NCBI GenBank assembly: GCA_001950395.1
Contig: BDLO01000001.1
Span: 469,979-533,978 of the forward strand
Reading direction: 5' to 3'
Source: Coriobacteriaceae bacterium EMTCatB1
Lineage (GTDB): Bacteria; Actinomycetota; Coriobacteriia; Anaerosomatales; Anaerosomataceae
DNA: 64,000 bases
A program made the translations under genes and the position numbers. The notes beneath the pieces were generated by a model. It was not told where the DNA came from, made no database searches, and was given only the letters and a program-made list of their open reading frames with translations. Every line of letters starts with the position of its first letter. The stretch's first letter is position 1. Of the stretch, positions 15,380-43,319 are shown in pieces.

Positions 15380-15389
15380 CACGCGAGCG

Positions 15390-16203: not shown

Positions 16204-17088
16204 ATGACGATGACTTTCCAAGACGTGATCCTTGCGCTGTCGCGCTACTGGGCCGATCAGGGGTGCGTCGTGCTGCAGCCCTACGACATCGAGGTCGGTG
16301 CGGGGACGTTCCATCCCGCGACGACGCTGCGGTCGCTCGGTCCCGACGCGTGGCGGACCGCCTACGTGCAGCCATCTCGCCGGCCGACCGACGGGCGCTA
16401 CGGCGAGAACCCCAACCGTCTGCAGCACTACTACCAGTTCCAGGTCATCCTCAAGCCGAGCCCCGACGACGTTCTGGACCTGTACTTCGGCTCGCTCAAG
16501 GCGATCGGAATCGATCCAGAGGAGCACGACGTGCGTCTCGTCGAGGACGACTGGGAGTCGCCGACGCTGGGCGCGTGGGGTCTCGGGTGGGAAGTGTGGC
16601 TCAACGGCATGGAGGTGACGCAGTTCACCTACTTCCAGCAGGTGGGAGGGCTGGAGTGCCGGCCGGTGCCTGCGGAGATCACCTACGGCCTGGAGCGGCT
16701 GGCGATGTACATTCAAGGCGTCGACAGCGTGTTCGACCTCGTCTGGTCCGTCGGCCCCGACGGGCTCGCCTTCACCTACGGCGACGTGTTCTTGCGCAAC
16801 GAACGCGAGCAATCGACGTACAACTTCGAGGTCGCGGACGTCGAAGCGCTGCTTCAGCGCTTCTCTATGTACGAGGCGGAGTGCAGGAGAACACTCGAGG
16901 CGGGGCTCGTGCTGCCCGCCTACGACTACGCGCTCAAGTGCTCGCACGTCTTCAATCTTTTGGATGCGCGCGGCGCCATCGCGGTGACGGAGCGCACCGG
17001 CTACATCTTGCGCATCCGTTCGCTCGCGAAGGCGTGCTGCGAGGCGTACGTCGCCTCTCTTGAGGGGTCGAAGGGCGGTGATGCGTGA
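16204..17088 (+). CDS. glyQ: Glycine--tRNA ligase alpha subunit
   Basis: 294 aa with a highly conserved GlyQ sequence ([39 protein letters not shown]). Confidence 0.95.
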
Positions 17089-28406: not shown

Positions 28407-29771
28407 GTGACGGAAACCAGCGAAGGAAGACCCAAGAAGCAGAGCGCGAGCAAGAAGAACGCTGCGGCCGCGGGCAAGGGACGCACGGCCGTTCGTGCGC
28501 TCATCGAGGCGGGCCTCGAGAAGGGCTCGCTGACTGACGAGGAGATTCAGCACGCTCTCGCAGAGGCGGAGCTTTCCGAGGACCAGATCGAGCGCGCCTA
28601 CGCGGAGATCGCGAAGGCCGGCATCGAGATCGTCGAGGAAGCGCCCGCGGCGGTGGTTCCTGCGCACGACGAGGTCGTGGTTGCCGATGAGGCGCTCGAC
28701 GCCGACCTCCCCGAAGACCTCGCCGCAGTCGCCGACGTCGTGGCAGACATCGAAGGCGTGGCCGGCAAGAGCGAGCCGAAGAAGCCCAGCAAGAAGAACG
28801 ACGCGCGCGCACGGGCGCGGAAACGCGCCGAGGCACACGTGAACGTCCCTGTCACGAGCGACCCCGTGCGGATGTACCTGAAGGAGATCGGCAAGGTGCC
28901 GCTCCTCACGGCTGCGCAAGAGGTCGACCTCGCCAAGAAGATCGAGGCAGGCGTGGAGGCCACGGCCAAGCTCGAGGAGGCCGAGGCCAAAGGCATCGAG
29001 CTCGATCCGGCGGAGCGCCGTCGGCTCGAGCGGCTCGAGCACATCGGGCTTCAGGCCAAGCAGCAGCTTGTGGAGGCGAACCTTCGGCTGGTCGTGTCGA
29101 TCGCCAAGCGGTACGTCGGCCGCGGCATGCTCTTCCTCGACCTCATCCAGGAGGGCAACCTCGGCCTCATCCGCGCGGTCGAGAAGTTCGACTACAGCAA
29201 GGGCTTCAAGTTCTCGACGTACGCAACGTGGTGGATCAGGCAGGCCATCACCCGGGCCATCGCGGACCAGGCCCGCACAATCCGCATCCCCGTGCACATG
29301 GTCGAGACCATCAACAAGGTCATCCGCATCCAGCGGCAGCTGCTCCAGGAGCTCGGGCGCGAGCCGACGCCGGAGGAGATCGGCGAGCAGATGGACATGA
29401 GCGCCGACCGCGTGCGGGAGATTCTGAAGATCTCGCAGGAGCCGGTCTCTCTCGAGACGCCGATCGGCGAGGAGGAGGACTCGCAGCTCGGGGACTTCAT
29501 CGAGGATTCCGACGCCGTGGTGCCGGCGGACGCTGCGTCCTTCTCGATGCTGCAGGAGCAGCTGCAGCGCGTGCTCGACTCGCTGTCTGAGCGCGAGCGG
29601 AAGGTCATCGAGCTGCGGTTCGGGCTCGTCGACGGGCACCCGCGCACGCTCGAGGAGGTCGGGCGCGAGTTCGGCGTCACGCGCGAGCGTATCCGTCAGA
29701 TCGAGAGCAAGACGCTGTCGAAGCTGCGTCACCCGTCGCGGTCGGCCCGCCTGCGGGACTACCTCGAGTAG
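28407..29771 (+). CDS. rpoD: Principal RNA polymerase sigma factor (RpoD/SigA)
   Basis: Carries the rpoD box [40 protein letters not shown] and region 4.2 [20 protein letters not shown]. Confidence 0.95.
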
Positions 29772-29820
29772 ACGCGTCGCCTGCTCGCGTCGGCTGCCGT
29801 TGCGGCTCGATGCGCTCGAT

Positions 29821-31560
29821 CTACCTCGTGTGGCGGGAGGCGAAACCGAACGTCACGCTGCCGGGCGCGTGGCACGCGTCGCACGTGTAGGTCGTGAAGT
29901 CGCGACCGGGATGGCACAACGTGCAGTCCGACGCGGCGGGGTCGGGGCCTTCCAGCACGTGCGCAGAGATCGAGGGATGGACGAACCGGATGTCATCCCA
30001 GGTCGTCGGCATGTGGCAGCGCAGGCAATCAGAAGGCCCGACGTGCGGCACCGTAGTTGCGTGGCACGTGACGCAGGGCGTCGTGGGATCCTCGAAGATG
30101 AGCGTGGGGTGGCACAGGTTGCAGCGCATCGCGCGGTGAGTATCGCCGAGCTGTATCGGTTCTGGATGCACGACGGTGGACTTCACCGAGACGAAGGCTG
30201 TCGTCGTATGGCAGACGCCGCAGCGCGCGTAGTCAGGGCCGTGGCGCAGCGCGTGGCAGCTGGAGCAGACGTAGGGCTGCCCGATGGCTGTCGCGTACGC
30301 GTTGCTGGGGTGGCACTTCGAGCACGCAAGCGTCGCATGAGCTCCGGTGAGCACGAAGACGGAACTGTGCTTGAAGGTGGCGGGCTTGAAGCCAGCGGTG
30401 GTGTGGCACGAAGCACACTCTGTCAACCCGCCGTGCTGCGGACCGTGGCATCCGACGCAAACGGTGGGAGCGGCCCCGAAACTCCCTGATGCGTGGCACT
30501 TCCTGCAATCGAGGTAGGCGTGCTTGCCGGTGAGCGGGAACTTCGCGGCGTGGTCGAACGACGGCTGCCAGGAGTAGCGCTTCGGCGAGTGGCAGCGGCT
30601 GCAGTCTGTGAGCCCGCCGTGCTTGTCGCCGTGGCAGCCAACGCAGGTGGACGGCGTGCCGGCGAAGCGTCCCGACGGGTGGCACTTCGCGCACTGCGTC
30701 TTCGCGTGAGCACCCTCGAGGCGGAACTTCGCGGCGTGGTCGAACGATGGCTGCCAGGAGTACCTCTCGGGCGAGTGGCAGCGGCTGCAGTCTGTGAGCC
30801 CGCCGTGCTTGTCGCCATGGCAGCCAACGCAGGTGGACGGCGTGCCGGCGAAGCGTCCCGACGGGTGGCACTTCGCGCACTGCGTGTCAGCGTGCGTCCC
30901 TTTGAGAGCGAAGAACGCCGCGTGATCGAAGCCTTCTTTCGGCTGCCACATCCGAGCGGGATCGTGGCAGTCCTCGCACTTCGTGAGCCCGCCGTGGTGG
31001 ACGCCGTGGCAGTCGACGCATCCGCGCGGACGGGTCGGACCGGCGAAGCCCGTGTGACAGGCCTCGCAGTCGAGGTTCAGATGACCTCCGAGGAGCGAAA
31101 GGTGGGTCTGCGGGATCGGTTTGCGAGCAGACCAGGCGATCGCCGTGTGGCATGCCGAGCAGTTCTTCACGGACGCTGGGTGAGGGGAGCGCTTGAGGTG
31201 GCAGGACTCGCAGGCCTTGTCAGGAACCTTGCCGGATGAGTCGTGGCAGCGTGCGCAGGCAATCAGCGCGTGGAATGACTCGTTGAGGAAGGCCTCGCGA
31301 TGGGTGTAGTCGACGTTCGTCCACGAGGACGTGCTGTGGCAACGATCGCAAGCAAGGTTTGCATACTCGCCCGCATGCTGATAGGTGTGGAGCGGCGCCG
31401 TCTTGCACGAATCGCAGGTTGAGCCTGCCGGCACCTGAGGATGGCCTGCGGCGCGCGCTTGCTCCTGAGGCCGGAGCGAAGCGGCGACGCCTATCGCAGC
31501 AAGAATGATGATGGCTGCGAGCACGAAGATCGCTGCACGGGTCTTCGTTGCCTGCGACAT
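29821..31560 (-). CDS. Membrane-anchored multihaem c-type cytochrome, 24 CxxCH motifs, built from c7-like trihaem repeats
   Basis: 579 aa. N-terminal signal-anchor AAIFVLAAIIILAAIGVAA. I counted 24 CxxCH motifs. The unit FDHAAKF-x-L-x-G-x-HA-x3-C-x-KCHPSG-x-F-x-G-x-P-x2-CVGCHG-x2-HGGLT-x-C-x2-CH recurs. RBS GAGGAGG lies upstream of ATG 31560. Confidence 0.85.
   Translation of the reverse strand: MSQATKTRAAIFVLAAIIILAAIGVAASLRPQEQARAAGHPQVPAGSTCDSCKTAPLHTYQHAGEYANLACDRCHSTSSWTNVDYTHREAFLNESFHALIACARCHDSSGKVPDKACESCHLKRSPHPASVKNCSACHTAIAWSARKPIPQTHLSLLGGHLNLDCEACHTGFAGPTRPRGCVDCHGVHHGGLTKCEDCHDPARMWQPKEGFDHAAFFALKGTHADTQCAKCHPSGRFAGTPSTCVGCHGDKHGGLTDCSRCHSPERYSWQPSFDHAAKFRLEGAHAKTQCAKCHPSGRFAGTPSTCVGCHGDKHGGLTDCSRCHSPKRYSWQPSFDHAAKFPLTGKHAYLDCRKCHASGSFGAAPTVCVGCHGPQHGGLTECASCHTTAGFKPATFKHSSVFVLTGAHATLACSKCHPSNAYATAIGQPYVCSSCHALRHGPDYARCGVCHTTTAFVSVKSTVVHPEPIQLGDTHRAMRCNLCHPTLIFEDPTTPCVTCHATTVPHVGPSDCLRCHMPTTWDDIRFVHPSISAHVLEGPDPAASDCTLCHPGRDFTTYTCDACHAPGSVTFGFASRHTR
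30537..30885. repeat. Tandem 186-bp duplication inside the 24-haem cytochrome gene
   Basis: 30537..30699 and 30723..30885 (period 186 nt = 62 codons) align with only a handful of mismatches. Each copy encodes one trihaem unit (CAKCH, CVGCH, CSRCH). Confidence 0.9.
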
Positions 31561-31655
31561 GAGGGCGCCTCCTCATCTACACCGCGACTCCGAGGTCAGC
31601 GGGTCTTACCGGACAAGCATGCCACATCCACTCAGGTATCTCCATATGCTGCAGG

Positions 31656-31685
31656 GAGGGCGGGACCCGTGCGGGCCCCGCCCTC
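31656..31685 (-). terminator. GC-rich stem-loop between the two cytochrome genes
   Basis: On the minus strand: GAGGGCGGGGCCC-GCAC-GGGTCCCGCCCTC (13-bp stem with one G-T pair), 30 nt after the stop of the upstream gene. No T-tract follows, so it could be a partial terminator or an mRNA-stabilising structure. Confidence 0.45.
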
Positions 31686-31714
31686 TGCGACCTCATCTCA
31701 ACGTGCGCTGCACG

Positions 31715-34700
31715 TCAGTTGAGGATGTCGCGGACGGCGTCGCGCACCGCCTGCGAGATGACGCTCGTACCACCGAAGAAGCGCACCTCAGTGATGTCGT
31801 CCTTGTGTGCGGACAGTGCAGCTTCAGCAGCGGGATCCAGCGTCGTGCCCGGGGTCAGGAGCAGCACGGAGCCGTCCTTGCCCTGCAGGACACCGCCTGC
31901 GAGAGCATCCGGGTAGTTCGTTCCGAGCGTGAGAGCGACCTTGTTCCAGCCAAGGCCCGCCGTGTCGACGCCATACGCGGCGACAGCGGCAGCGGTCTCG
32001 TAGCGGTTGTCGCCAGCGAGCCGGGTCATCGTGACGCCGTCGATGGCGAAGTCACCGCTGACGACGCCTGGACCGCCGAGGATGATGCCTGAGGTCACAG
32101 CGTCGTTGACGGTTGCCGTGGTCGCGCCCGGAGCCACCAGGTAGACGGGCCAGATCTTCGCGGCGGCCAGCGGCGATGCCGCGAGCGCGTCCGGGAAGTT
32201 GGCGCCGGTGGCGAAGAACGCGGTGCCGTCGTACGCGCCGCCAGCGAGCTCGATGACCTTGTCAGCCACGAGCGAGGCGGTCTCGTAGCGGTTGCCACCA
32301 GCGATGCGGGTGACATTATCTGCGCCGAGCGTGGCGACGAGCGCGTCCTCGACGGCGCCGCTCACGGCGCCAGTGCCGCCCAGGATGTACGCCTTGGTGG
32401 CACCCAGGTCGTCGATCGCGTCAAGCACCGGAGTCGGATCCGAGCCGACGAGCAGCATCGGACCGTCCACCGCGCCGGCGAGCGCAGAGCCGCCGAGAGC
32501 GTCCGGCCAGTTGTACGCGGTGGCCAGGACGACCGCGTCAGCGCCACTCGGGAAGGCCTTCATGGCCATCGCGATGGCGGTCTCGACACGGTTGGCGCCT
32601 GCGATCTCGACGAGGTCGGTGGTCTTGGGAGCAGCACCGACGGCGATGCTCACGGAGCTGCTCACGAGGTCAGCAGCGTGGTCCTCGACAGCGCCCTTGG
32701 CGTCGCTGCAACGGTTCCACACGACGCGGTACTGCGCGGTGGCCGTCGGAGCGAGCATGAAGGCGAAGTTGCCGTTGGCGTCCGACTTGGTGGAGCCGAC
32801 GGTCGTCCAGCTGGAACCCTCAAGACGCTCGAGGGTGACGACGCCGTCAGCAGCAGCAGAGCCGTCGCCGTTCTTGATGGTGCCGGCGATGGCTGCGAAG
32901 CTGCCGTACGCGACGCTGGACGGCGCCTGGACGGTAGCGAACGAACCGCCCACGGACTTCGACCACTTGGTGCCCATGTTGAGAGCAGCGACGATGTACT
33001 CGGGGTTGTGAGCACCGTTCGAGCCCTCGGCAGTGAACGCCTTGTGGTTGAAGTACGCACGGCCAAGCAGCGCCTTCTCGGCGGCGCTGATCGTGCCGTC
33101 GGCGTTGGCCCGCGTGTACGCCGAAGCGTACGCGGCCTTCAGCGCGGCATCAGCAGTGGCTGCATCTTCCTGCCACTGCTCGATGTACGCCTGGAGCTGT
33201 TCTTGGGTCTGGCCGGTGTGGCACGGCGAGCACGAGTCGCCCCACGGAGCGAGACCCCACTCCTTGGCCTTGCCAGGCTCCATGATGAACATGCGGTGGC
33301 TGTACCGCTTCCACGACCGGTCCTCGTACCGCGGGATCGCGGTCTTCTCGGGGAAGTCGGAGCGCGTCGCAGGCATGTGGCACTGCTCGCACTTCGCGCC
33401 AGGCATGAACATGCCGGCCTGGTCGACGCCGTACAGGCCGCGGCCGTTGTAGACCTCGCGGGTCGGATGGCTGACCGGACGGCCGCCATCGATGTTGGCG
33501 TTCGGAGTCGGGACTGCCAAGAGCTTGCCATCCGAACCGACGATCGTGTTGATGTCGGTGCCGTTGGCGTTCGCCTCGACTTCCTTCTGCCAGTTGTGGC
33601 AGTCCTCGCACATGCTGTTGTTGCCGGACTCGGGGTCGCGCACCTTCATGCCGATGGCTTCGCCCTCTTCGGTGTCAGCACCGTGAGCGACGTGGCACAC
33701 CGCGCACTCCTGGCCGTAGTAGCCGGAGTTGCTGCTGGTGACGGTGAAGCCAGCCATGATGTCAGCGCCCTTGCGCTTGAGGTAGCCCTCACCGGTGTGG
33801 CAGGCGAGGCACGCGGCGCCAGAGGTCTTGGCGTTGAAGTGGCCAGCGCCAGTCTCCATGTACTCCGAGGCGCGCGGATCGGCTTCCAGGATTGCCACCT
33901 GGCCGTCGTGCGAAGAGGTCGCCTCGACCGCCTCGCCGTAGACGCCGCCGCGCCACGAGTGAGCCGAGAGCTGCCACTCGCTGTAGTACGAGTGCTTCAG
34001 CCCCTTGTTATGCCCGCTCGGATAGAACATGTAGGCGCTCGGGTTTGCGGTGAAAGACGCCTCGGTCGGGACGTCAGCGAACCCGTACAGCTTGTCCTCG
34101 ATGAAGTCCGTGAGCGTCAGGTCAGGCGTGTAACCCTTGTAGTTGTTGCCGGACTTGTAGCGCCCGTGGCACTGGCCGCACACGTCGGAGTCGAGGATGC
34201 GGGTGCTGTAGGCCTTGGCGTTCTTGTTCGTGGCTGCAGTGTTGAAGCCGACGATGCCGACGCCGGAGTTCCAGTGACCGCCCTGGCTCGCGGTGAGCTC
34301 GAGGCCGGTGCCGTGGCAGTTCTCGCACTGGATGCCCATGCCCTCGGCCCACGTCGCAAGGTCGGTCTCGGGCTTCGAGGGATCCTTGGCCATGCCGCGG
34401 CGAGTAGCGGACTGGGTAGCGTGAGTGCCGGTCGCAGCCGGTCCTGTGGCGGTGACGTACCCAAGATGGTGGCAGTTGCCGCAGGTGTAGTTGCCGACCT
34501 CAAGGCCGGTGCTTGCGATCTCCCACAGGTCGGGCTCGGCGGGATCCCACTCGAGACCTTCGACCATCAGGAACGGGTCGGACGTGCCAGGCACGTAGTT
34601 GTCGGGGTCGTACGCGTAGTTGAAGACCATGTACTCGCGAAGACCCGTGCCGGCGCCGACTGTGATGCCGATCTCGTCCTTGGAGATCATCTCGCCGACC

Positions 34701-34936
34701 GAAGCGCGGCCTGCGGGCCACATGTAGTCCGCCGACGGGTCAGCACCCGGGGTGGCGAACTTGCCGTGGGTGGTGTCAGCGTAGGTGTCGCCGTGGCATG
34801 AGACGCACGTCGCCTGGCCAGCGAACTTGAGACCATACTCATTCTCAAGCAACGCGTACGCGGCCGAGGGGACGAGCATCATCGCGGCGATCGCCACTAC
34901 GCTGAGAAGAGCAACGAACCGCTTTGATGAAAGCAT
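31715..34936 (-). CDS. Secreted nonahaem c-type cytochrome fused to an Ig-like (carboxypeptidase-regulatory-like) domain and three CWB2 cell-wall-binding repeats
   Basis: ATG 34936 follows GAAGGAGGAG; the ORF-track start 34978 has no RBS. Signal peptide MLSSKRFVALLSVVAIAAMMLVPSAAYA. Nine CxxCH motifs (CVSCH, CGNCH, CENCH, CGQCH, CLACH, CAVCH, CEDCH, CEQCH, CSPCH). Next comes VTLERLEGSSWTTVGSTKSDANGNFAF. The last ~300 aa (about nt 31718-32615) hold three repeats of the type AG-x-NR-x-ETA...PDALAG...P(M/V)(L/Y)LV...(I/F)(L/F)GG...(I/V)S. Confidence 0.85.
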   Translation of the reverse strand: MLSSKRFVALLSVVAIAAMMLVPSAAYALLENEYGLKFAGQATCVSCHGDTYADTTHGKFATPGADPSADYMWPAGRASVGEMISKDEIGITVGAGTGLREYMVFNYAYDPDNYVPGTSDPFLMVEGLEWDPAEPDLWEIASTGLEVGNYTCGNCHHLGYVTATGPAATGTHATQSATRRGMAKDPSKPETDLATWAEGMGIQCENCHGTGLELTASQGGHWNSGVGIVGFNTAATNKNAKAYSTRILDSDVCGQCHGRYKSGNNYKGYTPDLTLTDFIEDKLYGFADVPTEASFTANPSAYMFYPSGHNKGLKHSYYSEWQLSAHSWRGGVYGEAVEATSSHDGQVAILEADPRASEYMETGAGHFNAKTSGAACLACHTGEGYLKRKGADIMAGFTVTSSNSGYYGQECAVCHVAHGADTEEGEAIGMKVRDPESGNNSMCEDCHNWQKEVEANANGTDINTIVGSDGKLLAVPTPNANIDGGRPVSHPTREVYNGRGLYGVDQAGMFMPGAKCEQCHMPATRSDFPEKTAIPRYEDRSWKRYSHRMFIMEPGKAKEWGLAPWGDSCSPCHTGQTQEQLQAYIEQWQEDAATADAALKAAYASAYTRANADGTISAAEKALLGRAYFNHKAFTAEGSNGAHNPEYIVAALNMGTKWSKSVGGSFATVQAPSSVAYGSFAAIAGTIKNGDGSAAADGVVTLERLEGSSWTTVGSTKSDANGNFAFMLAPTATAQYRVVWNRCSDAKGAVEDHAADLVSSSVSIAVGAAPKTTDLVEIAGANRVETAIAMAMKAFPSGADAVVLATAYNWPDALGGSALAGAVDGPMLLVGSDPTPVLDAIDDLGATKAYILGGTGAVSGAVEDALVATLGADNVTRIAGGNRYETASLVADKVIELAGGAYDGTAFFATGANFPDALAASPLAAAKIWPVYLVAPGATTATVNDAVTSGIILGGPGVVSGDFAIDGVTMTRLAGDNRYETAAAVAAYGVDTAGLGWNKVALTLGTNYPDALAGGVLQGKDGSVLLLTPGTTLDPAAEAALSAHKDDITEVRFFGGTSVISQAVRDAVRDILN

Positions 34937-35152
34937 CGCTCCTCCTTCTCGAACGAATAGGTTTGCGGACATGCGCATGAGACATCACCTCCTTCCCCGC
35001 GCGGGTTTGATCCGCGTAGCGTGCGCCGTGAGCGTCGTGACGATGGTTGGGTGGCGCACGCCAAACCAAATATATAGCCAAGCGCTAACGCCGGCTAACG
35101 TTTCTTGAGATTACCAACGGTGAAATCCGTCACTTTCTGACGAGCGGTTGTT

Positions 35153-35168
35153 TGTGCGATGGCTCACA
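35153..35168. promoter_or_regulatory. CRP/FNR-family-like palindrome upstream of the cytochrome operon
   Basis: TGTGC-GATGGC-TCACA compared with the CRP-type TGTGA-N6-TCACA. It lies in the 270-bp intergenic region between the cytochrome gene and tRNA-Asn. Confidence 0.25.
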
Positions 35169-35249
35169 CTGAGCGCGCAACGCGTGTGTGCGGGTCATGC
35201 GCGCAAGAGAACGGCCGCCTCCCGTGCAGGAAGACGGCCGTTGTATTCG

Positions 35250-35326
<77 letters not shown>

Positions 35327-35338
35327 ACGGCGCAGTGG

Positions 35339-35367
35339 ATTATACGGAAGCCGCGGAGCCGCTGCAA
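35339..35367 (-). promoter_or_regulatory. Promoter of tRNA-Asn
   Basis: Minus strand reads TTGCAG, a 17-nt spacer, then TATAAT. The -10 element ends 12 nt upstream of the mature tRNA 5' end. Confidence 0.55.
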
Positions 35368-35430
35368 CACGCGGGAGCGCCGCTGCAACACGCGCGAGAG
35401 CCGTTGCGGTACAATCGGTGCTCGCCGGCC

Positions 35431-35505
35431 GGGCCCGTAGCTCAACGGTGGAGCAGGGGACTCATAATCCCTTGGTTGCAGGTTCGAATCCTGCCGGGCC
35501 CACCA
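35431..35505 (+). tRNA. tRNA with CAT anticodon (elongator Met, or Ile2 if lysidine-modified), CCA encoded
   Basis: Acceptor GGGCCCG/CGGGCCC, anticodon arm GGGGA-CTCATAA-TCCCT, T arm GCAGG-TTCGAAT-CCTGC. The paired G1-C72 argues against an initiator. A TACAAT -10-like hexamer lies at 35410-35415. Confidence 0.88.
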
Positions 35506-35540: not shown

Positions 35541-36638
35541 ATCGGCCGTCGGATCGAGAGGCGCATCCGCGCCAAGGACGCCAAAGTCAAGCCGCTGCGA
35601 TGGCTCGTTGCAGGCGGTCTGGTGGTCGTCGCCCTCGTGGGAGCAGTCGCGCTGTCAGCGAGGTGGCGGGCTGAGCATCGGGTGACTGTGGGAGAGGCGC
35701 CCCCCGCGACCGTGGGCGTTGCCGTGGCAAGCGAAAGCGTCGAGGCGAGCGGCGTCGTGGCTGGACGCGTGGAGGTGCCGAACCTCGTCGGCATGACGTT
35801 GGACGAGGCGAAGGCGCTGCTTGCCACCGGCGGTCTGGCGGTCCGAGCGCTTGCGTCCCCCGCTGGCGAGACGACGCCTGGGGTGGTGCTCGACCAAGAT
35901 CCCGCCCTGGGAACCATCGTCGGGCGGGGCGGCACGGTCTCGGTGTGGTACGCGTCTTCAGACTCGGTGGCGGCGACGAGCGCTCCCAATGACCCTGACG
36001 CCGCCAGAGGCGGGCGGTTCGTGGTGTGCATCGACCCTGGGCACCAAGACAAGCCGAACCTCGCGCGCGAACCGATAGGTCCGGGAGCGACGGAGACCGT
36101 GCCGAAGTGCGCGGCTGGCGTGACGGGCGTCGTGACGGGGCAGAGCGAGCCGGAGGTCGCGCTCGCGATCGCGCTGGATCTGAAGCGCGCTGTGGAAGAA
36201 CGCGGGGTGACTGTGGTGCTGACTCGCACGACGAATGCGGTCGACATCTCGAACGCCGAAAGAGCGCGTATCGCCAACGAGTGCGGCGCCGACCTCTTCG
36301 TCCGGATCCACGCAGGGTCGGACACCAACGGCGATGTCAGTGGCGTGCGTACACTCTACCCCGCGGGCAATGAGTGGGTCGCGCCGATCAGCTCCGCGAG
36401 CCGCGCGGCCGCACAGGCGATCCAGCGCGCGCTTGCGGACGCAACGGGCGCGCAGGACCGGGGCACGGCGAGCAGGAGCGACCTCGCGGGCTTCAACTGG
36501 TCGCGGGTGCCGGCGGTGCTCGTCGAGTGCGGCTGCCTCACGAACCCGGTCGAGGACCGGCGTCTGGCGACGGAGGCGTACCGGTCTGCCGTGGCTCGTG
36601 GCATCTGTGCGGGTGTGTTACAGTACCTGGAAGACTGA
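35541..36638 (+). CDS. N-acetylmuramoyl-L-alanine amidase (Amidase_3) with N-terminal TM anchor and PASTA domain; start codon uncertain
   Basis: Amidase_3 core (VVCIDPGHQD..., ADLFVRIHAGS, VLVECGCLTNPVED). PASTA-like segment VPNLVGMTLDEAKALLATGGLAV...VVLDQDPALGTIVGRGGTVSVWY. The frame is open back through the tRNA gene. No ATG, GTG or TTG lies between the tRNA and the TM helix. ATC 35541 sits 6 nt after a perfect AAGGAGG. The first canonical start is GTG 35622, inside the TM helix. Confidence 0.8.
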   Translation: MGRRIERRIRAKDAKVKPLRWLVAGGLVVVALVGAVALSARWRAEHRVTVGEAPPATVGVAVASESVEASGVVAGRVEVPNLVGMTLDEAKALLATGGLAVRALASPAGETTPGVVLDQDPALGTIVGRGGTVSVWYASSDSVAATSAPNDPDAARGGRFVVCIDPGHQDKPNLAREPIGPGATETVPKCAAGVTGVVTGQSEPEVALAIALDLKRAVEERGVTVVLTRTTNAVDISNAERARIANECGADLFVRIHAGSDTNGDVSGVRTLYPAGNEWVAPISSASRAAAQAIQRALADATGAQDRGTASRSDLAGFNWSRVPAVLVECGCLTNPVEDRRLATEAYRSAVARGICAGVLQYLED

Positions 36639-36660
36639 CTGGAAGCAGGAGGGGGGCAGG

Positions 36661-37407
36661 ATGGCGGCTGCGAGTCGTGATGCGCGCGCGTCTGGCGGTG
36701 GCGCTGTCGGCGCCGTGCGGGCCGGCGTGACCGCTGGGTTGCTGGTGGCGCTCGTCGCGGTCGGTCTCCTCGGCTACCTGCAGCTTTCCGGAAAGCGGCT
36801 GCCGTTCGAGCGCCCGCGCGAGATCTCGCGCGTCCTCGTCGTCGTCGCGTTGCCCGACGAATCCGGCGACGTGGTAGCACAGACGGTCGCAGTGGTGGAC
36901 CTCGGCGCGGGACGCGTGGAGAGCGTCGACCCCTCGATGCCCGTGATGATACCCGGCACGTCGTACTCGGCTCTGCGTGACGCGTACCCCTTCGGAGGCG
37001 GAGCGGGCGTGGCGAAAGCGCTCGCGCAGGCGCGCGGCGGTGAGCCGCTGCCGTACCTGGTCCTCGGGAGCGACGCGGTGAGCGAGGCGCTTGCCGCAAG
37101 CCCGGGGCTTGCCATCGATCTGCCGGAGCCGATGGCGGTGTTCGACGGCGAACGGCTCTACGAGTGGAGCGCGGGACCGGTGCGGATAACGAGCGTGTCA
37201 GAGCTGCGTGCGATACTCAACGGCGCTGCGTACCTTTCGGCGAGCGGTCGCGAGAGCGTGTTGCAGCAAGTGGCGGAGGGCGTCGTGTCGTTGGCAGGGC
37301 GGTTGCCAGGCGGGCTGGCTGGCGCCGTCGAGGACGGGGTGGTCGAGAGCGATCTTGTGGGCGACGAGGTGCAAAGCGTGGAGAGCAGACTAGGCAGCTT
37401 GCAGTGA
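36661..37407 (+). CDS. Membrane-anchored hypothetical protein, weakly LytR-CpsA-Psr (LCP)-like
   Basis: ATG 36661 follows GGAGGGGGG. There is one N-terminal TM segment. The extracytoplasmic part (VLVVVALPDESGD..., IPGTSYSALRDAYPFGGGAG..., PYLVLGSDAV) loosely resembles LCP-domain blocks. This assignment is tentative. Confidence 0.45.
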   Translation: MAAASRDARASGGGAVGAVRAGVTAGLLVALVAVGLLGYLQLSGKRLPFERPREISRVLVVVALPDESGDVVAQTVAVVDLGAGRVESVDPSMPVMIPGTSYSALRDAYPFGGGAGVAKALAQARGGEPLPYLVLGSDAVSEALAASPGLAIDLPEPMAVFDGERLYEWSAGPVRITSVSELRAILNGAAYLSASGRESVLQQVAEGVVSLAGRLPGGLAGAVEDGVVESDLVGDEVQSVESRLGSLQ

Positions 37408-37480
37408 CGGAGCTCATGCCTACGGGTTGTTCGTTGTGGTATTCTGCCAAAAGTCTGGATTCTGAAGGGGGTATCGCGTC

Positions 37481-38329
37481 ATGGTGGCTGACGAGACCAA
37501 GCAGAGCGGCAAGCGCGTCATCGCCGCGCTGATCGTCGTTGTGGTGGTTCTGGCCGCTTTTGGAGCGGCGTACGCGCTGCTTGGCGGTGCGGATCTGGTC
37601 GCGGATCTGCTCGGCGGCGGCTCCCAGCAGCCGGCTGCGCAGAAGCCGTCGACGCCCGCTAAGCCCAGCACGCCTTCGGAGCAGCCCTCGACGCAGCCTG
37701 CCGAGAGCTCTGAGCCGACTGCGAGCACCGAGCCCACCGAGAGCGCCGAGACGCCGACGAGCGGCAGCACCTCTGGGAGCACGTCAGGCGGCGCCTCGTC
37801 GCCGGCGGTGACGCTCCCGACCAGCGACCAGGCGGCGCGCATGTACTGGGAGCAGGTCGCCAGCCAAGAGCAGATCGGCAAGTTGGTGCGCGGCGAGGTG
37901 AAGAGCATCGCGTTCGGCAGCGTGGCGATCTCTGGCGATACGGCCACCGTGCCGCTGACCGTCACCTACACGAGCGGGTCGTCGCTCTCGGGCCGCATGG
38001 TGCTGCGCAAGTACGGCACTGCGTGGTACTTCTCGAGCATCGCCCGTTCCGGCAACCCGCTCACGGTGACGACTGGCAAGTCGGCCGACCTGGGCGTCGT
38101 CAGCACCATCGTCAACCAGCAGGCGAGCAACCAGGACCTCGTGAAGGGCATCGTGGACGGCAGCTATAAGAGCTGCACGGTGAACGGCGTGAGCTCCGGC
38201 TCGGGAACGGCAACCGTGCGCATCACGCTGTCCGGATCGGATGCGCCGGTCGCGGGCCGGGTCACCTGCATCAGCAAGGTGATCGACGGCACGAAGATGT
38301 GGTTCATCACGTCCTTCGCGAAGAACTAG
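37481..38329 (+). CDS. Membrane-anchored hypothetical protein with a Pro/Ser/Thr/Glu-rich linker and duplicated C-terminal module
   Basis: 282 aa. N-terminal TM segment (VIAALIVVVVVLAAFGAAYALL), a low-complexity linker (PSTPAKPSTPSEQPSTQPAESSEPTASTEPTESAETPTSGS), then two related ~55-aa modules ending GTAWYFSSIARS and GTKMWFITSFAKN. Confidence 0.55.
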   Translation: MVADETKQSGKRVIAALIVVVVVLAAFGAAYALLGGADLVADLLGGGSQQPAAQKPSTPAKPSTPSEQPSTQPAESSEPTASTEPTESAETPTSGSTSGSTSGGASSPAVTLPTSDQAARMYWEQVASQEQIGKLVRGEVKSIAFGSVAISGDTATVPLTVTYTSGSSLSGRMVLRKYGTAWYFSSIARSGNPLTVTTGKSADLGVVSTIVNQQASNQDLVKGIVDGSYKSCTVNGVSSGSGTATVRITLSGSDAPVAGRVTCISKVIDGTKMWFITSFAKN

Positions 38330-38358: not shown

Positions 38359-40167
38359 GTGGAGCTGCGCGATTACCTAGCCGTCATCCGCGCTCGCAAG
38401 TGGGTCATCATCCAGGCGGTCGTGATCGTTACGGTCACGGCCGCCATTGCGAGTGCGCTCATGCCGCCCGTGTACGAGGGTCAGGCGAAGGTCCTCATCT
38501 CGGAGAAGGACACTGGCGCGGCCCTGCTGGGGCAGGTGTTCTCGGAGTTCTCGCAGCCGGAACGCGGCTTGCAGACGCAGGTGCAGCTCATGCAGATCCG
38601 CCCGCTTGCGGAGAACACGATCCGCAAGCTCGGGCTGAAGATGACGCCTGAGCAGCTGCTGAAGAAGGTCGAGATCAAGGCCGTCGGGCAAACGAACATC
38701 GTGGAGATCACGGCGAAGGCAGGGGACGCCAAGACGGCTGCCGACATCGCGAACACGCTTGCCGACGAGTTCGTCGCGTGGTCGAAGGACTACAAGCGCG
38801 AGAGCATCCGGGCCGCGGCCGACGAGGTGGAGCGGCGGCTGGAGACCGCCAAGCAGGAGATCCTCGACCTCGGGCGCGAGATCAGCGAGCAGGGCAAGAC
38901 TGACGAGCTGTCAGCCGAGCTCGCGATCGCCATCAACAGCTACACCGACCTCGCGGGACGGCTGGAGGAGCTTCGAATCCAAGAGCAGCTGGAGTCCGGT
39001 TCGGGTCGCGTGGTGAGCCCTGCGGTGGTGGCCGCTGAGCCCGTCGAGCCGCGGCCGCTGCGCAATGGCGCTCTGGGGATCGCGGTGGGGCTGATGTTCG
39101 GGCTCGGCATGGCGTTCCTGTACGAGTACCTCGACGACACCGTGAAGAGCACCGAGCAGGTCGAGGAGCTGCTGGGCGCGCCGGTGCTGGGCGTCATCCC
39201 GGCCGAGAAGATCGAGAAGGACGAGAAGCGGCGCCTGACGCTCGTGACGCACCCCGGCACGGCAGCTGCCGAGGCGTACCGCGTGCTTCGCAACTCGCTC
39301 GACTTCGTGAACTTCCAGCACGACATCGCCTCGATCATGGTGACGAGCGCGGCGCCGGCCGAGGGCAAGTCCACCGTGGCCGCGAACCTGGCGGCCGGTC
39401 TCGCGCAGGCGGGCAAGAAGGTGGCATACGTCAACTGCGACTTCCGCAAGCCCACGACGCACCACTTCTTCCCGGTCTCCAACGCCGTGGGGCTCTCGGA
39501 CGTCCTCGCTGGCACAGTGACGCTTAAGAGCGCGCTTCAGCGGGTCGGAGAGGTCGGCGAGCTGCTCGTGCTCACCAGCGGTAAGCTCCCGCCGAACCCG
39601 AGCGAGCTTCTCGGTTCGGAGAAGATGCAGCTCATCGTCGAGGAGCTCAAGAAGTGGGCGGACTGGGTCATCGTGGACACCCCGCCGCTTCTTGCGGTGG
39701 CCGACGGCTCTGCCGTGGCGCGCTGGATCGACGGCGTACTGTTCGTCAGCAAGGCAGGCGTGTCCACGAGGGGCGCCATCAAGCAGTCGGCGGAGCTCCT
39801 GCAGCAGGTGGGCGCTCGCGTCGTGGGCGCCGTGGTGTGGGGCCTGGAGACGAGCGGCGGCGGGTCGTCGTACTACTACGGCGGCAAGGGCTACGCCGGC
39901 TACTACCGGTACGCGGACTACTACAAGCAGTACGCGGGACCGGCAGAAGCGGAGCCCGTGCGCGGGCGCAGGGGCGAGCAGGCGTCCACGGGCGCGTCCG
40001 AGATCTACATCCCGCCGGTGAGCCCCGGCCGCAAGTTCCTCGCGAGCGTCGGTCGGATCATGGCCGGCGTGCTCGCGTTCCTGGCCGTGGTGGCGATCGT
40101 CGCAGCCGTCGTGTACTTCATCGACCAGGCCTTCGGCTGGGGGATCGTGCAAGGGCTGCTGGGGTGA
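38359..40167 (+). CDS. Polysaccharide co-polymerase (Wzz domain) fused to a BY-type tyrosine autokinase
   Basis: GTG start. Wzz-like N-terminus with two TM segments flanking a coiled region. Walker A SAAPAEGKSTVAANLA and Walker B-like VIVDTPPLL. Tyr cluster SSYYYGGKGYAGYYRYADYYKQY, followed by an extra ~75-aa tail containing a hydrophobic helix. Confidence 0.85.
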   Translation: MELRDYLAVIRARKWVIIQAVVIVTVTAAIASALMPPVYEGQAKVLISEKDTGAALLGQVFSEFSQPERGLQTQVQLMQIRPLAENTIRKLGLKMTPEQLLKKVEIKAVGQTNIVEITAKAGDAKTAADIANTLADEFVAWSKDYKRESIRAAADEVERRLETAKQEILDLGREISEQGKTDELSAELAIAINSYTDLAGRLEELRIQEQLESGSGRVVSPAVVAAEPVEPRPLRNGALGIAVGLMFGLGMAFLYEYLDDTVKSTEQVEELLGAPVLGVIPAEKIEKDEKRRLTLVTHPGTAAAEAYRVLRNSLDFVNFQHDIASIMVTSAAPAEGKSTVAANLAAGLAQAGKKVAYVNCDFRKPTTHHFFPVSNAVGLSDVLAGTVTLKSALQRVGEVGELLVLTSGKLPPNPSELLGSEKMQLIVEELKKWADWVIVDTPPLLAVADGSAVARWIDGVLFVSKAGVSTRGAIKQSAELLQQVGARVVGAVVWGLETSGGGSSYYYGGKGYAGYYRYADYYKQYAGPAEAEPVRGRRGEQASTGASEIYIPPVSPGRKFLASVGRIMAGVLAFLAVVAIVAAVVYFIDQAFGWGIVQGLLG

Positions 40168-40565
40168 GGGATGGCGTCTGTCCTGGTACCACGCCTTGTG
40201 CTTTGAGAGCGTCATTTCGCGCCAGCTCATTGCACCGGTGGGTTACGACGAAGGACTCTCTCGTCGCCACGTGGGTGTGATGGAGATTCTTGTTGGTTTC
40301 CTTTGTCTTGCTGTGGCTGTGGCGCACGGCACTGAGGGTCATTGTGAGGCCGTTCTTGAGACTGCGTGTTGGCCGAGAAGGCAAGTGTTGCTGCCGGGGT
40401 TGGTATGGGGTGCAACATGCCATTAGGAGAATCTGGGTCTTGGCAGGCTACGTACTGTCGAACGTGTCGTTCCGTAGATGGCCCCGCTAGTGGATGTGTC
40501 GTTACGGTAGCAACTCCCCGGATACGTTACACGATGTCCTTCGTAATCTACTGGGAGACAACGTC

Positions 40566-42047
40566 ATGTCGGATGGTGTGAGAAGGGCTATACGAAGCCT
40601 TGGGCGGGAAAGCGCCCGGTATGGCTTCGGCCTGGCTTTAGCGCAGCTCGGCTCATTCCTGCTGATGCCCATACTGACTCATGCTCTCACGCGGTCTGAT
40701 TACGGCGTTGTGTCCGTTGCGCTGACAACAGCATCGGTGATCTCCACGGTAGCCGGTGCGGGGTTGAGTAGTGCTCTCCTCAGGTCGTACTACGACATGG
40801 GTGACGATGTTGGCCGGAACACTGTTGTATCGACGAGCTTCATCGTCGTGGCAGCATGGTCATGTCTGCTGGTCGCTCTGTCTGCACTAGTTGGCCGCGC
40901 GGGTTCCGCTGCTCTCTTTGGGAGTCCTACGCTTGCTTATCTTGTCGTGGTAGTCGTCTTCGAGGCGACGGGGCGTGCGGTAGTTTCTGTCTTGCAATCA
41001 GTGCTACGCGCAGAACACAGGGCTGGTCAATTCGTTGCGGTCAGTCTTGTGATGCTGGTTGCTCGCGTTGTCGTGAGCTGGCTTCTTGTCGCGCCGCTCG
41101 CATTGGGCTTGAAGGGATATGCTGTGGGCACAGTCATCGGAATGCTCACAGGGCTTGTGCATAGCGTGCTGCTGGTGCGCCGTCGTCTAGAAACAAGATT
41201 CTCTCTCGTAGAAGCGCGATTGCTTGTGTCGTTCGGATTGCCAGTGATGGTAGCGAACCTCGCGTACGCTGTGCTTGTCGGAGCTGATAGATACTTCTTG
41301 CGGGCATGGCATGGGCTTGAGGCAGTAGCTGTCTACAACGTGGGGTATCAGCTTGCAAGTATCGTGACGGTACTTCTTGTGACTCCAATCAACATGGCAT
41401 GGCCTACGATTCTGCTGCCCATGAAGGACAGTCCGGATCTGCCTGAGTTTGTGAGCCGCTCGCTCACGATGGTCTGCGGGTTGTGTGGCTGGGCGGTAGT
41501 CTCACTCGCATTCGGTGGTCCATTACTGGTAGAGATTGTCGCTCCACAAGGGTACGGTGACGCTGCCATAGTCATTCCAATCGTGGCGCTCGCGAACTCA
41601 ATGGTGTTGGTGCAGAGGGTATTGGCGGCCGGTCCTGAGCTGACACGGCGTATGAGAAGGTATGCCTTTCCTTATCTAGTTGCCGCGATAGCGGTAGTGG
41701 TGTTGGACTGGCTGGTGATTCCTGGTTGGGGCATGTATGGAGCGGCTGCTGCGACGTTGATTGCGTACGCACTGTTGCCGGTGATTGCCTATCGCGTCGG
41801 TACGACTCTGCTCGCTATTCATGTGGAACGGTCGCGCCTGGTGGCGATAGGTGGGCTGACTGCAGGTATGACCGCGCTGGGCATCTTCGCGGGTGCCGCG
41901 GTGCGCGGATCGGTACTTGGTGGCACACTGGCTATGGCGGCGGGTGTCATCTCATACCCGGCGCTACTCTTTGTGCTGCGGGTCATAGATAGGCGAAGTG
42001 TGTTGATGCTTTGGCGTTCACTAGGTGTGGCTCCTAGCTCTGATTAG
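40566..42047 (+). CDS. wzx: Polysaccharide flippase (Wzx, MOP superfamily)
   Basis: About 490-aa polytopic protein with many TM segments, in a Wzx-like position within the cluster. Start chosen at ATG 40566 (MSDGVRR). Visibly lower G+C than the flanks. Confidence 0.7.
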   Translation: MSDGVRRAIRSLGRESARYGFGLALAQLGSFLLMPILTHALTRSDYGVVSVALTTASVISTVAGAGLSSALLRSYYDMGDDVGRNTVVSTSFIVVAAWSCLLVALSALVGRAGSAALFGSPTLAYLVVVVVFEATGRAVVSVLQSVLRAEHRAGQFVAVSLVMLVARVVVSWLLVAPLALGLKGYAVGTVIGMLTGLVHSVLLVRRRLETRFSLVEARLLVSFGLPVMVANLAYAVLVGADRYFLRAWHGLEAVAVYNVGYQLASIVTVLLVTPINMAWPTILLPMKDSPDLPEFVSRSLTMVCGLCGWAVVSLAFGGPLLVEIVAPQGYGDAAIVIPIVALANSMVLVQRVLAAGPELTRRMRRYAFPYLVAAIAVVVLDWLVIPGWGMYGAAAATLIAYALLPVIAYRVGTTLLAIHVERSRLVAIGGLTAGMTALGIFAGAAVRGSVLGGTLAMAAGVISYPALLFVLRVIDRRSVLMLWRSLGVAPSSD

Positions 42048-42101
42048 ATCAACGAAGAACTTCGTTTGCCCCATAGCCTGTAATGCCCGTGAAGAGTAGG
42101 A

Positions 42102-43319
42102 GTGGCGAGCGCAGTGAAAGTAGTCCTCTTCTCGTTCCATCTCTATCCAGGCTCCGCAATCGGGGGCATGCGGCCGCACGCGCTCGCCAAGGGTTTGGCC
42201 GCTCGCGGTCATAGAGTCCACGTTGTGACGGCAGAGGAAAGTGCGGCAGATAACGCCGCGTATGCGACGATTGTCGTCCCGAACCAGCACTCTACAAGGC
42301 GCATCGATAAGCTGTTGCGTTATCCAGATATGTACGCGCGGTGGGTACGAGACGCTGTAGCCGAGCATAGAGTGCAGGAGATATTAAGAGAGTGTGACGC
42401 CGTAGTGACGACAGGACCCCCGTTTTCAGTGCACGCAGTCGGACTTCGCTCCAGTATCTCTAGGCGGTCGTGGGCTTGGCTTGCTGAATTCCGGGACTTG
42501 TGGACTGATGGCCCGTATTACACCCTTGGCCCAATCAGACGACTCATGGATTCACGGTATGAGAGGGATGTCCTGAGAGCGGCTGACACCGTCGTGGCTG
42601 CAACGGAGACCATGGCGGACTGTCTGCGCAGAGCAACCACTACTAGGATCAGGACGGCGTATTCGCCTGTGGCTGAGGTTCCTGAAGAAATCCTCGCGCA
42701 AGGAGAGACAGCCCGCAGAAACTCGCGATGCCTCCGGATTGCCCATGCTGGCTACCTGTACAAGGGTCGCCGGGACGTTAGGCCATTGCTGAGAGCAATC
42801 AAGACTTTGAGAGAGCGAGGCGAGGTCTGCGAAGGAGATGTGGAGCTTCACTTCTTCGGGCCTATGGACAAGACTTTGGCGGAGAGCATCGATACACTGT
42901 CTCTCGGTGATTTTGTGCTCGTAAGAGGGGTGCTTCCTCGGGACGCGCTGTGGCGCAGCCTTGCCGAGATGGACGCGCTGCTTGTGATTCGATGGCAGTC
43001 GCATCTGGACGCTCCGTTCATACCTGGCAAAGTGCTCGAGTATGCATCCTTTGGGGTTCCTGTGATCCTAGTGAACGCAGTGCCCAATGGCGAAGCGGAG
43101 AAGGCGTTGGAGGAGATTGGCTGTGGCCTGCTGTGCTTCGACGAGGCGGACATCATCGACGCACTGACGACCCTCTTGCGGCACAAGCGCGAAAGAGGCA
43201 CCGTGCGTTGCGCGGACACTAGCCGCTCCGGGCGGTTCTCAGCGGAAAGGTTTGTTGAAACCTACGAAGAGATAATTGCCGAGGCGGTCACGACGCGAGT
43301 TGAGGGTAATGCTGACTGA
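42102..43319 (+). CDS. Glycosyltransferase (GT-B fold, GT4-like)
   Basis: 405 aa. N-terminus VVLFSFHLYPGSAIGGMRPHALAKGLAARGHRVHVVT. The C-terminal half has a GT1/GT4-like layout. GTG start. Confidence 0.7.
   Translation: MASAVKVVLFSFHLYPGSAIGGMRPHALAKGLAARGHRVHVVTAEESAADNAAYATIVVPNQHSTRRIDKLLRYPDMYARWVRDAVAEHRVQEILRECDAVVTTGPPFSVHAVGLRSSISRRSWAWLAEFRDLWTDGPYYTLGPIRRLMDSRYERDVLRAADTVVAATETMADCLRRATTTRIRTAYSPVAEVPEEILAQGETARRNSRCLRIAHAGYLYKGRRDVRPLLRAIKTLRERGEVCEGDVELHFFGPMDKTLAESIDTLSLGDFVLVRGVLPRDALWRSLAEMDALLVIRWQSHLDAPFIPGKVLEYASFGVPVILVNAVPNGEAEKALEEIGCGLLCFDEADIIDALTTLLRHKRERGTVRCADTSRSGRFSAERFVETYEEIIAEAVTTRVEGNAD

Follow-up and report, generated by a model that had tools for sequence, protein, structure and literature searches.

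Electron crossing of the thick, insulating Gram-positive wall is known mainly from one model, Thermincola. In the thermophilic Gram-positive species Thermincola potens and T. ferriacetica, cytochromes (ImdcA, PdcA, CwcA, and OcwA) relay electrons outward from the membrane, across the wall, to the nonahaem OcwA at the surface. Besides OcwA the route contains three proteins, of which two are decahaems and the third is an OmcS-like hexahaem proposed to polymerise in the wall. A multihaem cytochrome linked to the S-layer by an SLH anchor, OmhA, is known from another Gram-positive host, Carboxydothermus ferrireducens. Long single-chain cytochromes are found in Geobacter sulfurreducens, where GSU1996 and GSU0592 (12 haems each) and GSU2210 (27 haems) consist of repeated trihaem c7/c3 modules.

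Coriobacteriaceae bacterium EMTCatB1 is a thermophilic bacterium from an electromethanogenic biocathode (an electricity-fed methane reactor), and it is dominant on the working thermophilic biocathode. In the published proposal for this organism electrons flow inward, from the cathode, whereas in Thermincola they are carried from the membrane to the surface OcwA. A 64-kb window of its genome, the whole stretch of DNA analysed here, contains a long trihaem-repeat cytochrome gene and, upstream of it, a gene for an OcwA-like nonahaem protein. The long cytochrome shares with the Geobacter polymers the modules repeated in one chain, about 24–26 residues per haem, presumably a linear haem wire, and a haem number that changes by whole modules. 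It differs from them by a probable additional haem at a CxxCK motif and by a dihaem cap at either end. The Geobacter polymers are soluble periplasmic proteins, whereas the host here is monoderm and an N-terminal tether is probable.

A strain-specific segment of 5,432 bp (29772..35203) carries the two cytochrome genes together with the region upstream of them, and it is absent from the approximately 97% identical strain GCA_030017365.1. In the latter 16 bp separate the rpoD stop codon from a terminator hairpin, and over 26 kb the two strains differ by no other large indel. The right border is formed by the hairpin terminator followed by tRNA-Asn (35204..35326, minus strand; the tRNA at 35251-35326), and the pair is flanked by rpoD on one side and by tRNA-Asn/tRNA-Met on the other. 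Insertion between rpoD and the tRNAs, proposed in a sequence-only reading of this DNA, is thus borne out relative to the related strain. At the borders neither an integrase nor direct repeats of at least 7 nt were detected, and the GC content of the segment equals that of its flanks; these results therefore give no sign of site-specific integration.

The Long Multihaem Cytochrome

The long cytochrome gene (29821..31560, minus strand; probable locus tag 1c0363 / GAV31166 of EMTCatB1) encodes 579 aa with 24 CxxCH motifs and one CxxCK motif; this tag and that of the partner gene are assigned by numbering logic. The earlier count of 24 CxxCH is exact. The ORF has 50 Cys and 52 His, and residue shuffles of the protein yielded on average 0.39 CxxCH and at most 4. 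GC content at the three codon positions (0.59/0.58/0.82) is consistent with a genuine minus-strand gene. The holoprotein is about 75 kDa, with a pI of about 8.2 for the mature form.

The haem number that had been read from these motifs should probably be raised, since a further haem-type motif, C49-D-S-C-K53 (31402..31416, minus strand), is located approximately 20 residues past the hydrophobic segment and probably binds a 25th, Lys-ligated haem. This motif is invariant in an alignment of 20 homologues with 41–56% identity, which makes 25 haems rather than 24 probable. In more distant relatives and other subfamilies the same position has CxxCH or Cx4CH instead.

The repeated trihaem units of about 62 residues are present as described earlier, but they are seven and not eight. 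An N-terminal dihaem cap (CxxCK49, C71) is followed by seven units of 61–67 aa (aa 86–526; 29983..31305, minus strand) with the pattern H-x9-10-H-x4-CxxCH-x11-14-CxxCH-x2-4-H-x4-6-CxxCH, and the chain ends in a C-terminal dihaem cap (C546, C560). About 25 His outside the motifs are conserved in the homologue alignment, a number that would suffice for bis-His ligation of all haems. The density of one haem per approximately 23 residues resembles that of c7 cytochromes. Units 3 and 4 are a recent tandem duplication (30537..30885, minus strand) of 186 bp, with 96% DNA identity and an identical core of 163 bp. The two units are 90% identical, and the remaining ones 13–54% in pairwise comparison. 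Short-read assemblies of the same strain have a single copy of the 186-bp unit and a 517-aa protein with 21 haems, which is more likely an assembly collapse of the identical core than a genuine variant.

Membership in the c3/c7 superfamily, the broader part of the earlier assignment to c7-type trihaem polymers, is supported by Pfam Cytochrome_C7 (PF14522, "c7 and related"; 92.4 bits in six stretches, gathering threshold 24.8), by the Cytochrom_c3_2 profile (62.6 bits, threshold 25), and by a weak match of the family profile to the GSU1996 structure 3OV0 (E 2e-6). The same family profile also reaches nine- and sixteen-haem c3-type cytochromes, and a phmmer search of PDB sequences with the single 579-aa sequence returned no match. 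The narrower part, membership in the GSU1996 family, fails. TIGR04257 (nanowire_3heme) gives 25.2 bits in one stretch, below its curated cutoff of 40. The Geobacter polymers have one His-Met haem per domain, which is impossible here because the mature protein has only three Met, none of them conserved; all haems of the long cytochrome can be bis-His. In an hhalign alignment of the trihaem unit with PpcA, at 47% probability, the H47 region is lost in an 8-residue deletion, the third distal His lies between haems III and IV in a CxxCH-G-x-x-H-G-G linker, and the c7 ligand arrangement (equivalents of PpcA H17, H20, and H47) is not found. Haems I and III are separated by 16 residues, as against 24 in c7. 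The units are thus only loosely c7-like.

Within the subfamily the CxxCH counts cluster at 21, 24, 27, and 30, which indicates that length changes by entire trihaem units. The trihaem-repeat superfamily as a whole is very large and uncharacterised, with up to 94 CxxCH in one protein. AlphaFold models of the long cytochrome reached a pLDDT of 59.7 (poor) with 20 sequences, and 78.1 with a pTM of 0.38 with 82 sequences. Foldseek found no match for either model in the PDB, a result that is taken to reflect the difficulty of modelling loop-rich cytochromes in the absence of their haems rather than a new fold.

The N-terminus (aa 1–27, MSQATKTR + AAIFVLAAIIILAAIGVAA; 31480..31560, minus strand) is a signal anchor that stays uncleaved or else a Sec signal cut at VAA|S. 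The hydrophobic segment noted earlier is present at aa 9–27, within a helix at aa 2–27 in the AlphaFold models, but its role as an anchor is uncertain. Where the closest homologues have their lipobox Cys, this protein has Ser28 (G-V-A-A-S as against G-I-A-A-C or L-V-A-C), so it has no lipobox with the invariant Cys at +1. A lipobox is found in 14 of the 42 subfamily members and others have hydrophobic helices of 22–24 residues, which argues for tethering of the family on the outside of the membrane. G-V-A-A|S looks like a good, classical site for signal peptidase I, and cleavage there could give a soluble protein.

A cleaved long cytochrome could float in the inner zone of the wall and act as a soluble electron store (capacitor) or as a shuttle between membrane and wall, buffering electrons and relaying them non-specifically, without a stable connection to the nonahaem protein. 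Such a role has been proposed for the periplasmic GSU1996, GSU0592, and GSU2210, and the literature treats the Geobacter trihaem polymers with 12 and 27 haems as capacitors. The Ser in place of the lipobox Cys fits this role. A free 75-kDa protein would, however, be prone to loss into the medium from a monoderm cell, and the relatives are tethered by lipid or by a long helix. Gene pairing and expression, described below, also bear on this reading.

The N-terminal layout also invites the view that the long cytochrome is itself a quinol- or quinone-interacting enzyme, a dehydrogenase like CymA, NrfH, or ImdcA fused to its own wire, with the two proteins connecting the quinone pool to the outside. 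The haem that comes first after the helix probably has an unusual ligand, as is also the case in NrfH and CymA, and the CxxCK does not vary within the subfamily; a high-spin haem is described in the literature for Thermincola ImdcA. No other quinol dehydrogenase is found near the pair or conserved across 16 loci. On the other hand, PF03264 (NapC/NirT) has no match in the long cytochrome at E ≤ 0.1, the common feature being just the general order of helix and then haem. The helix would be lost in the third of homologues that are lipoproteins and may be cleaved in this protein. Such an enzyme is very doubtful.

The Nonahaem Partner and the Gene Pair

The upstream gene (31715..34978, minus strand; probable tag 1c0364 / GAV31167) encodes a protein of 1087 aa with nine CxxCH, a Sec signal (…SAAYA|L), and a C-terminal triplet of CWB2 wall-binding repeats (PF04122, E 2e-46 in three stretches; aa ~786–1087; 31718..32623, minus strand). 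It is a homologue of Thermincola OcwA, matching OcwA 6I5B at E 1.3e-15 in three colinear segments (query 203–653, OcwA 131–489), the NrfA-like C-terminal part included. The nonahaem protein with CWB2 repeats of the sequence-only reading is thereby confirmed. OcwA itself, a chain of 526 aa, lacks CWB2, whereas the homologue here has this wall anchor. The Sec signal and the triplet together suggest a surface location, and reduction of solids or shuttles would be a likely activity by homology. As in OmhA and other multihaem cytochromes linked to the S-layer, a dedicated domain would hold the protein in the wall or S-layer, SLH in OmhA and a CWB2 triplet here.

The repeats match those of C. difficile Cwp8, Cwp6, and SlpA, which likewise have three CWB2 in tandem and a wall-polymer locus nearby. 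The passenger here is, unlike in the C. difficile proteins, a nonahaem cytochrome, and the host is an actinobacterium. Near the pair, inside the window, are also a cluster of wall-polysaccharide genes and another CWB2 protein. The triplet is C-terminal in this protein and N-terminal in some relatives, and SLH (PF00395) occurs in only one among the listed homologues. A full-text literature search found no paper that combines "multiheme" and "CWB2".

The partner also matches Cytochrom_C552 (PF02335, NrfA), and its homologues are named "ammonia-forming cytochrome c nitrite reductase subunit c552" by PGAP. The two proteins could accordingly be viewed as a respiratory reductase for a soluble substrate (nitrite, hydroxylamine, or sulfite), with the nonahaem protein as enzyme, the long cytochrome as its membrane-side donor in the manner of NrfA-NrfH, and contact with solids as incidental. 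Purified OcwA reduces nitrite and hydroxylamine according to the literature, nitrite reduction is among the functions reported for the EMTCatB1 genome, and a CxxCK motif, typical of NrfA, is present in the long cytochrome. This motif, however, sits in the wire protein and not in the putative enzyme, and NapC/NirT (PF03264) is not matched. A soluble substrate needs neither a 25-haem donor nor a wall anchor, and high expression on a CO2-fed cathode also speaks against a reductase of this kind, which is quite improbable.

The two genes are co-oriented with a gap of 154 nt, exactly as first described. Conservation of the pair as a unit, also expected from that reading, is seen in part: 10 of the 15 informative relatives' loci have the ordered, co-oriented pair, in different and unrelated genomic contexts, but in the other five the long cytochrome has no adjacent partner. 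The pair is conserved across uncultured Coriobacteriia, and across 16 loci the OcwA-like gene is the only neighbour of the long cytochrome that is conserved between lineages. Cytochrome c maturation, whose absence from the genome would have counted against the earlier proposal, is encoded (CcsA, 1c0360).

Co-transcription of the two genes is doubtful. A GC-rich hairpin of 13 bp without a U-tract (31656..31685, minus strand), 29 nt past the stop codon of the nonahaem gene, may act as a terminator or stabiliser. A scan of 29600-35450 for sigma-70 promoters and intrinsic terminators gave nothing relevant, and Rfam detected two tRNAs only. In published RNA-seq data, under our inferred gene mapping, 1c0363 has a TPM of 4392 at closed circuit and of 1262 and 1111 under the two remaining conditions (Kobayashi et al., 2021). 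With the same mapping it ranks among the most abundant 10% of transcripts on working cathodes and is one of five highly expressed multihaem cytochromes; it is outside the genes that the authors reported as significantly induced by closed circuit. The nonahaem gene, also as mapped, has a TPM of 593 as against 4392, and this approximately 7-fold difference and the hairpin argue against a simple operon.

The very different expression levels and the five loci without a partner would suit a soluble store that works independently of the nonahaem protein. In most lineages, however, the OcwA-like gene accompanies the long cytochrome in a fixed order, which points to a specific partnership, and a soluble store is, in balance with the points on tethering given above, rather unlikely.

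The Proposed Trans-Wall Conduit

On balance we lean towards the view that the two genes are a portable unit that lets electrons cross the wall of a monoderm, Gram-positive actinobacterium, with a 25-haem wire and a wall-held nonahaem protein. The long cytochrome would leave the cytoplasm through Sec, and system II (CcsBA) would mature it on the outer side of the membrane. Its approximately 25 six-coordinate haems, packed tightly at one per ~23 residues, would make the single polypeptide an electron wire if the haem chain is continuous, and the wire might be roughly 20–25 nm long if extended like the Geobacter dodecahaem GSU1996.

The N-terminal end of the wire would be at or near the cytoplasmic membrane, whichever mode of tethering applies, and it is likely at the CxxCK haem that electrons would be exchanged with redox partners in the membrane or with the quinone pool. 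Through a physical interaction of both proteins, the distal end would pass electrons to the OcwA-like nonahaem cytochrome or receive them from it, and the direction of flow may be either. The nonahaem protein, held by its CWB2 triplet in the wall and surface layer, would touch the external solid, which is the cathode in the source reactor and may be Fe(III) minerals elsewhere. One 25-haem chain could thus do what the three additional proteins do in Thermincola.

A bolder version holds that the pair is a horizontally mobile, self-sufficient two-protein cassette, in which the Lys-ligated haem is coupled directly to the quinone pool and the far end is docked on the CWB2-anchored OcwA-type protein, that it replaces the four-protein relay proposed for Thermincola with its polymerising CwcA, and that its gain adapted EMTCatB1 to the cathode. 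This version appears unlikely. The conduit as such is plausible, and its design varies a known theme and introduces no new principle.

The locus would offer a simpler, genetically testable layout for electron transfer across the wall, with one very long single-chain cytochrome and one wall-anchored terminal cytochrome. It is also a practical target, as the organism dominates a biocathode, expression data are published, a natural near-isogenic strain lacks the cassette, and the pair is conserved. The CWB2 domain, known from Clostridioides surface proteins, would here serve to display redox proteins.

Motifs, repeats and N-terminus of the long cytochrome

The ORF at 29821-31560 (-) encodes a protein of 579 aa with 50 Cys, 52 His and 24 CxxCH motifs, the number given by the sequence-only reading; residue-shuffled versions contain on average 0.39 such motifs and at most 4. 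Its codon-position GC (0.59/0.58/0.82, in a genome of 66% GC) fits a real gene. An extra motif overlooked in that reading, C49-D-S-C-K53, is invariant together with H40 in an alignment of 20 homologues 41-56% identical to the protein, and more distant subfamilies have CxxCH or Cx4CH at its position. Because of this pattern, the motif would most simply be a 25th haem site with Lys as ligand.

The motifs form an N-terminal dihaem cap (CxxCK49 and C71), seven trihaem units of 61-67 aa each at aa 86-526 (H-x9-10-H-x4-CxxCH-x11-14-CxxCH-x2-4-H-x4-6-CxxCH), and a C-terminal dihaem cap (C546 and C560). The repeated three-haem units described earlier are thus present, but the caps at both ends hold two haem motifs each. 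Since about 25 His outside the motifs are fully or almost fully conserved among the aligned homologues and the mature protein has only 3 Met, all its haems could be six-coordinate with His. Ligation of this kind is the hallmark of electron-transfer proteins, not of enzymes.

The protein matches Pfam Cytochrome_C7 (92 bits, six stretches) and Cytochrom_c3_2, but TIGR04257, the curated model for Geobacter-type nanowire trihaem domains, reaches 25 bits against a cutoff of 40. A single-sequence search with the protein found no match among solved structures; the family profile gave weak matches to nine-haem 1DUW (E 2e-8), GSU1996 (3OV0, E 2e-6) and sixteen-haem HmcA. In hhalign, the three motifs of one unit align with c7 haems I, III, and IV of PpcA. 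Unlike PpcA, the unit has an 8-residue deletion removing the H47 segment, and it gains a His in the CxxCH-G-x-x-H-G-G linker. Because of the low TIGR04257 score, the weak structure matches and these two differences, the units are classified from sequence as c7-related and not c7 proper, so that only a looser form of the proposed GSU1996-like character is retained.

The trihaem repeat is widespread, with 5982 clusters at E <= 1e-3 in the representative library, and the count in one protein goes up to 94 CxxCH in 2321 aa. Giant cytochromes of this type (the protein P0142 and others) are all unannotated, most have ordinary signal peptides, and they probably come mostly from Gram-negative phyla. 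The CxxCK subfamily, to which the long cytochrome belongs, is found in MAGs of Coriobacteriia and other Actinomycetota. Its CxxCH counts cluster at 21, 24, 27, and 30, therefore length changes by whole trihaem units. Units 3 and 4 of the long cytochrome (90% identical; a 186-bp tandem duplication) show such a change in the window itself. Short-read assemblies of the same strain lack one unit, which is what collapsing the identical 163-bp core would produce.

Haem of the c type is attached outside the cytoplasm. Since the hydrophobic stretch follows K6 and R8, the haem domain faces outward. The odds that the N-terminus is kept as a membrane anchor, as was initially proposed, appear about even. 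Tethered relatives speak for it: of 42 subfamily members, 14 have a lipobox, and helices of 22-24 residues with aromatic residues after them occur in others. Against it, the window protein has Ser28 where its closest homologues have the lipobox Cys, and I-G-V-A-A|S looks like an ordinary site for signal peptidase I. These opposing features also bear on a rival reading of the long cytochrome as a soluble capacitor or shuttle.

The wall-anchored partner and conservation of the pair

The upstream gene at 31715-34978 (-) encodes a protein of 1087 aa with a Sec signal, nine CxxCH, MtrC-like and NrfA-like Pfam domains and three CWB2 repeats. It is colinear with OcwA of Thermincola potens (6I5B, E 1.3e-15), and its C-terminus matches Cwp8, Cwp6, and SlpA of C. 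difficile, in agreement with the wall-anchored nonahaem partner recognized earlier. The NrfA-like and OcwA-like features both touch on another rival reading, in which the long cytochrome donates electrons to an Nrf-like reductase of soluble substrates.

This cytochrome is combined with CWB2 in at least 16 protein clusters of the database. The CWB2 triplet is C-terminal in the partners of the window, L025 and L026, and close to the N-terminus, behind the first haem, in those of five other relatives' loci (L010, L012, L013, L015, and L017); the partner homologues at L018-L020 are without any CWB2. Judged by sequence, the wall anchor is shuffled within one cytochrome family. In a full-text literature search, 'multiheme' and 'CWB2' never occurred together in one paper.

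In 8 of the 13 species-representative genomes with a long-cytochrome homologue, the next gene upstream, on the same strand, is OcwA-like, with 8-9 haems. Such a gene also precedes the two closest homologues outside the strain, giving the pair at 10 of 15 informative loci. Flanks vary by locus (nitrogenase, purine synthesis, others), and the OcwA-like gene is the sole neighbour conserved across lineages. Conservation as a unit thus applies to most loci, but the remaining five genomes have the long cytochrome without an adjacent partner. At L014, the gene at 7831-9777, directly upstream of a 21-haem homologue, encodes a CWB2 protein that is haem-free and peptidase-like in its N-terminal part. 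At L007, two tandem proteins of ~870 aa (12415-17903), each with nine CxxCH and an Ig-like domain, follow a 26-haem homologue; no similarity of these proteins to the OcwA-like partner was detected, and they may serve as a different partner at the surface.

Strain-specific presence and expression

EMTCatB1, of the order Anaerosomatales, is the dominant organism of a thermophilic electromethanogenic biocathode. Three proteins of the window, RpoD, HppA, and the amidase, are identical to its GAV31165, GAV31163, and GAV31168. The ~97% identical GCA_030017365.1 aligns unbroken to the rpoD stop codon and again from 35204, lacking exactly 29772-35203, i.e., both cytochrome genes and their upstream region, which bears out the proposed insertion beside rpoD. 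No close copy of either cytochrome was found in NCBI genomes, therefore the cassette is missing from all sequenced close relatives. Neither repeats nor an integrase were found at its borders, and its GC content equals that of the flanks. Gain in EMTCatB1 would be a more economical reading than loss.

The pair are the only clear minus-strand genes in the 64-kb window. GC skew is positive over 1-64000 and nearly all genes are on the plus strand, thus the pair is transcribed head-on to replication. Wall-polysaccharide genes at 40000-48000 (flippase, GT4 glycosyltransferases, Wzy-like) have GC of 0.56-0.59, against 0.66-0.70 elsewhere, and the alignment of the ~97% identical strain ends at 40175. 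The region resembles a strain-variable glycopolymer cluster next to genes for CWB2 proteins, recalling the cwp/anionic-polymer locus of C. difficile. Two ORFs of 390 and 282 aa at 36235-38329 (+), between PASTA-amidase and Wzz/tyrosine-kinase genes, gave no match in a Pfam search and are conserved in the related strain L023. The gene at 54156-56345 (+) encodes another CWB2 protein, which carries three PPC (pre-peptidase C-terminal) domains; its GenBank counterpart GAV31185.1, annotated as 'amidase cwlB precursor', has 383 aa only. Genes with similar names reach very high expression in published data (e.g., 1c0070, TPM ~8900) and may be misnamed S-layer or CWB2 proteins. A cluster resembling membrane-bound [NiFe] hydrogenase or complex I, with an Oxidored_q6 small subunit, lies at 56826-62219 (+), just past tRNA-Val and ~22 kb from the cytochromes (1d0408-0411 in Kobayashi et al., 2021).

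In the locus tags reported by Kobayashi et al. (2021), the prefixes 1d and 1c mark the strand, and numbers rise with coordinate (e.g., nuoA 1c0339 down to nuoH 1c0335); 1d0386-0389 are hppA, dnaG, rpoD, and amiC, and 1c0363 and 1c0364 are neighbouring 'multiheme cytochrome c' genes. Since GenBank has exactly two proteins between rpoD and amiC, we infer from tag order and adjacency that 1c0363 is the 24-haem gene and 1c0364 the nonahaem gene. 1c0363 is among five cytochrome genes that the authors highlighted because they rank within the top 10% of transcripts when the cathode is working; its TPM was 4392, compared with 1262 and 1111 under the two other conditions. For 1c0364, TPM was 593. Under this assignment, the 7-fold gap and a 13-bp GC-rich hairpin downstream of the nonahaem gene argue against simple co-transcription of the pair. 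The expected cytochrome c maturation genes are represented by CcsA (1c0360).

A proposed trans-wall electron conduit

Trihaem polymers, OcwA and the Thermincola pathway, and CWB2 anchors are known ingredients, and uptake of cathode electrons by cytochromes of EMTCatB1 has already been proposed. New are the two-gene module, the CWB2-displayed OcwA homologue, the invariant CxxCK haem, length variation by whole trihaem units and the strain-specific presence of the cassette.

The pair is best read as a trans-wall electron conduit; besides the two rival readings named above, a third gives the long cytochrome a built-in quinol dehydrogenase function. GSU1996 extends roughly 1 nm per haem, and on this assumption the wire would measure ~20-25 nm. 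In the conduit, the long cytochrome would form a single-chain wire of ~25 haems whose CxxCK end lies close to the membrane, and it would act together with the OcwA-type cytochrome, which is anchored in the wall and would touch the solid.
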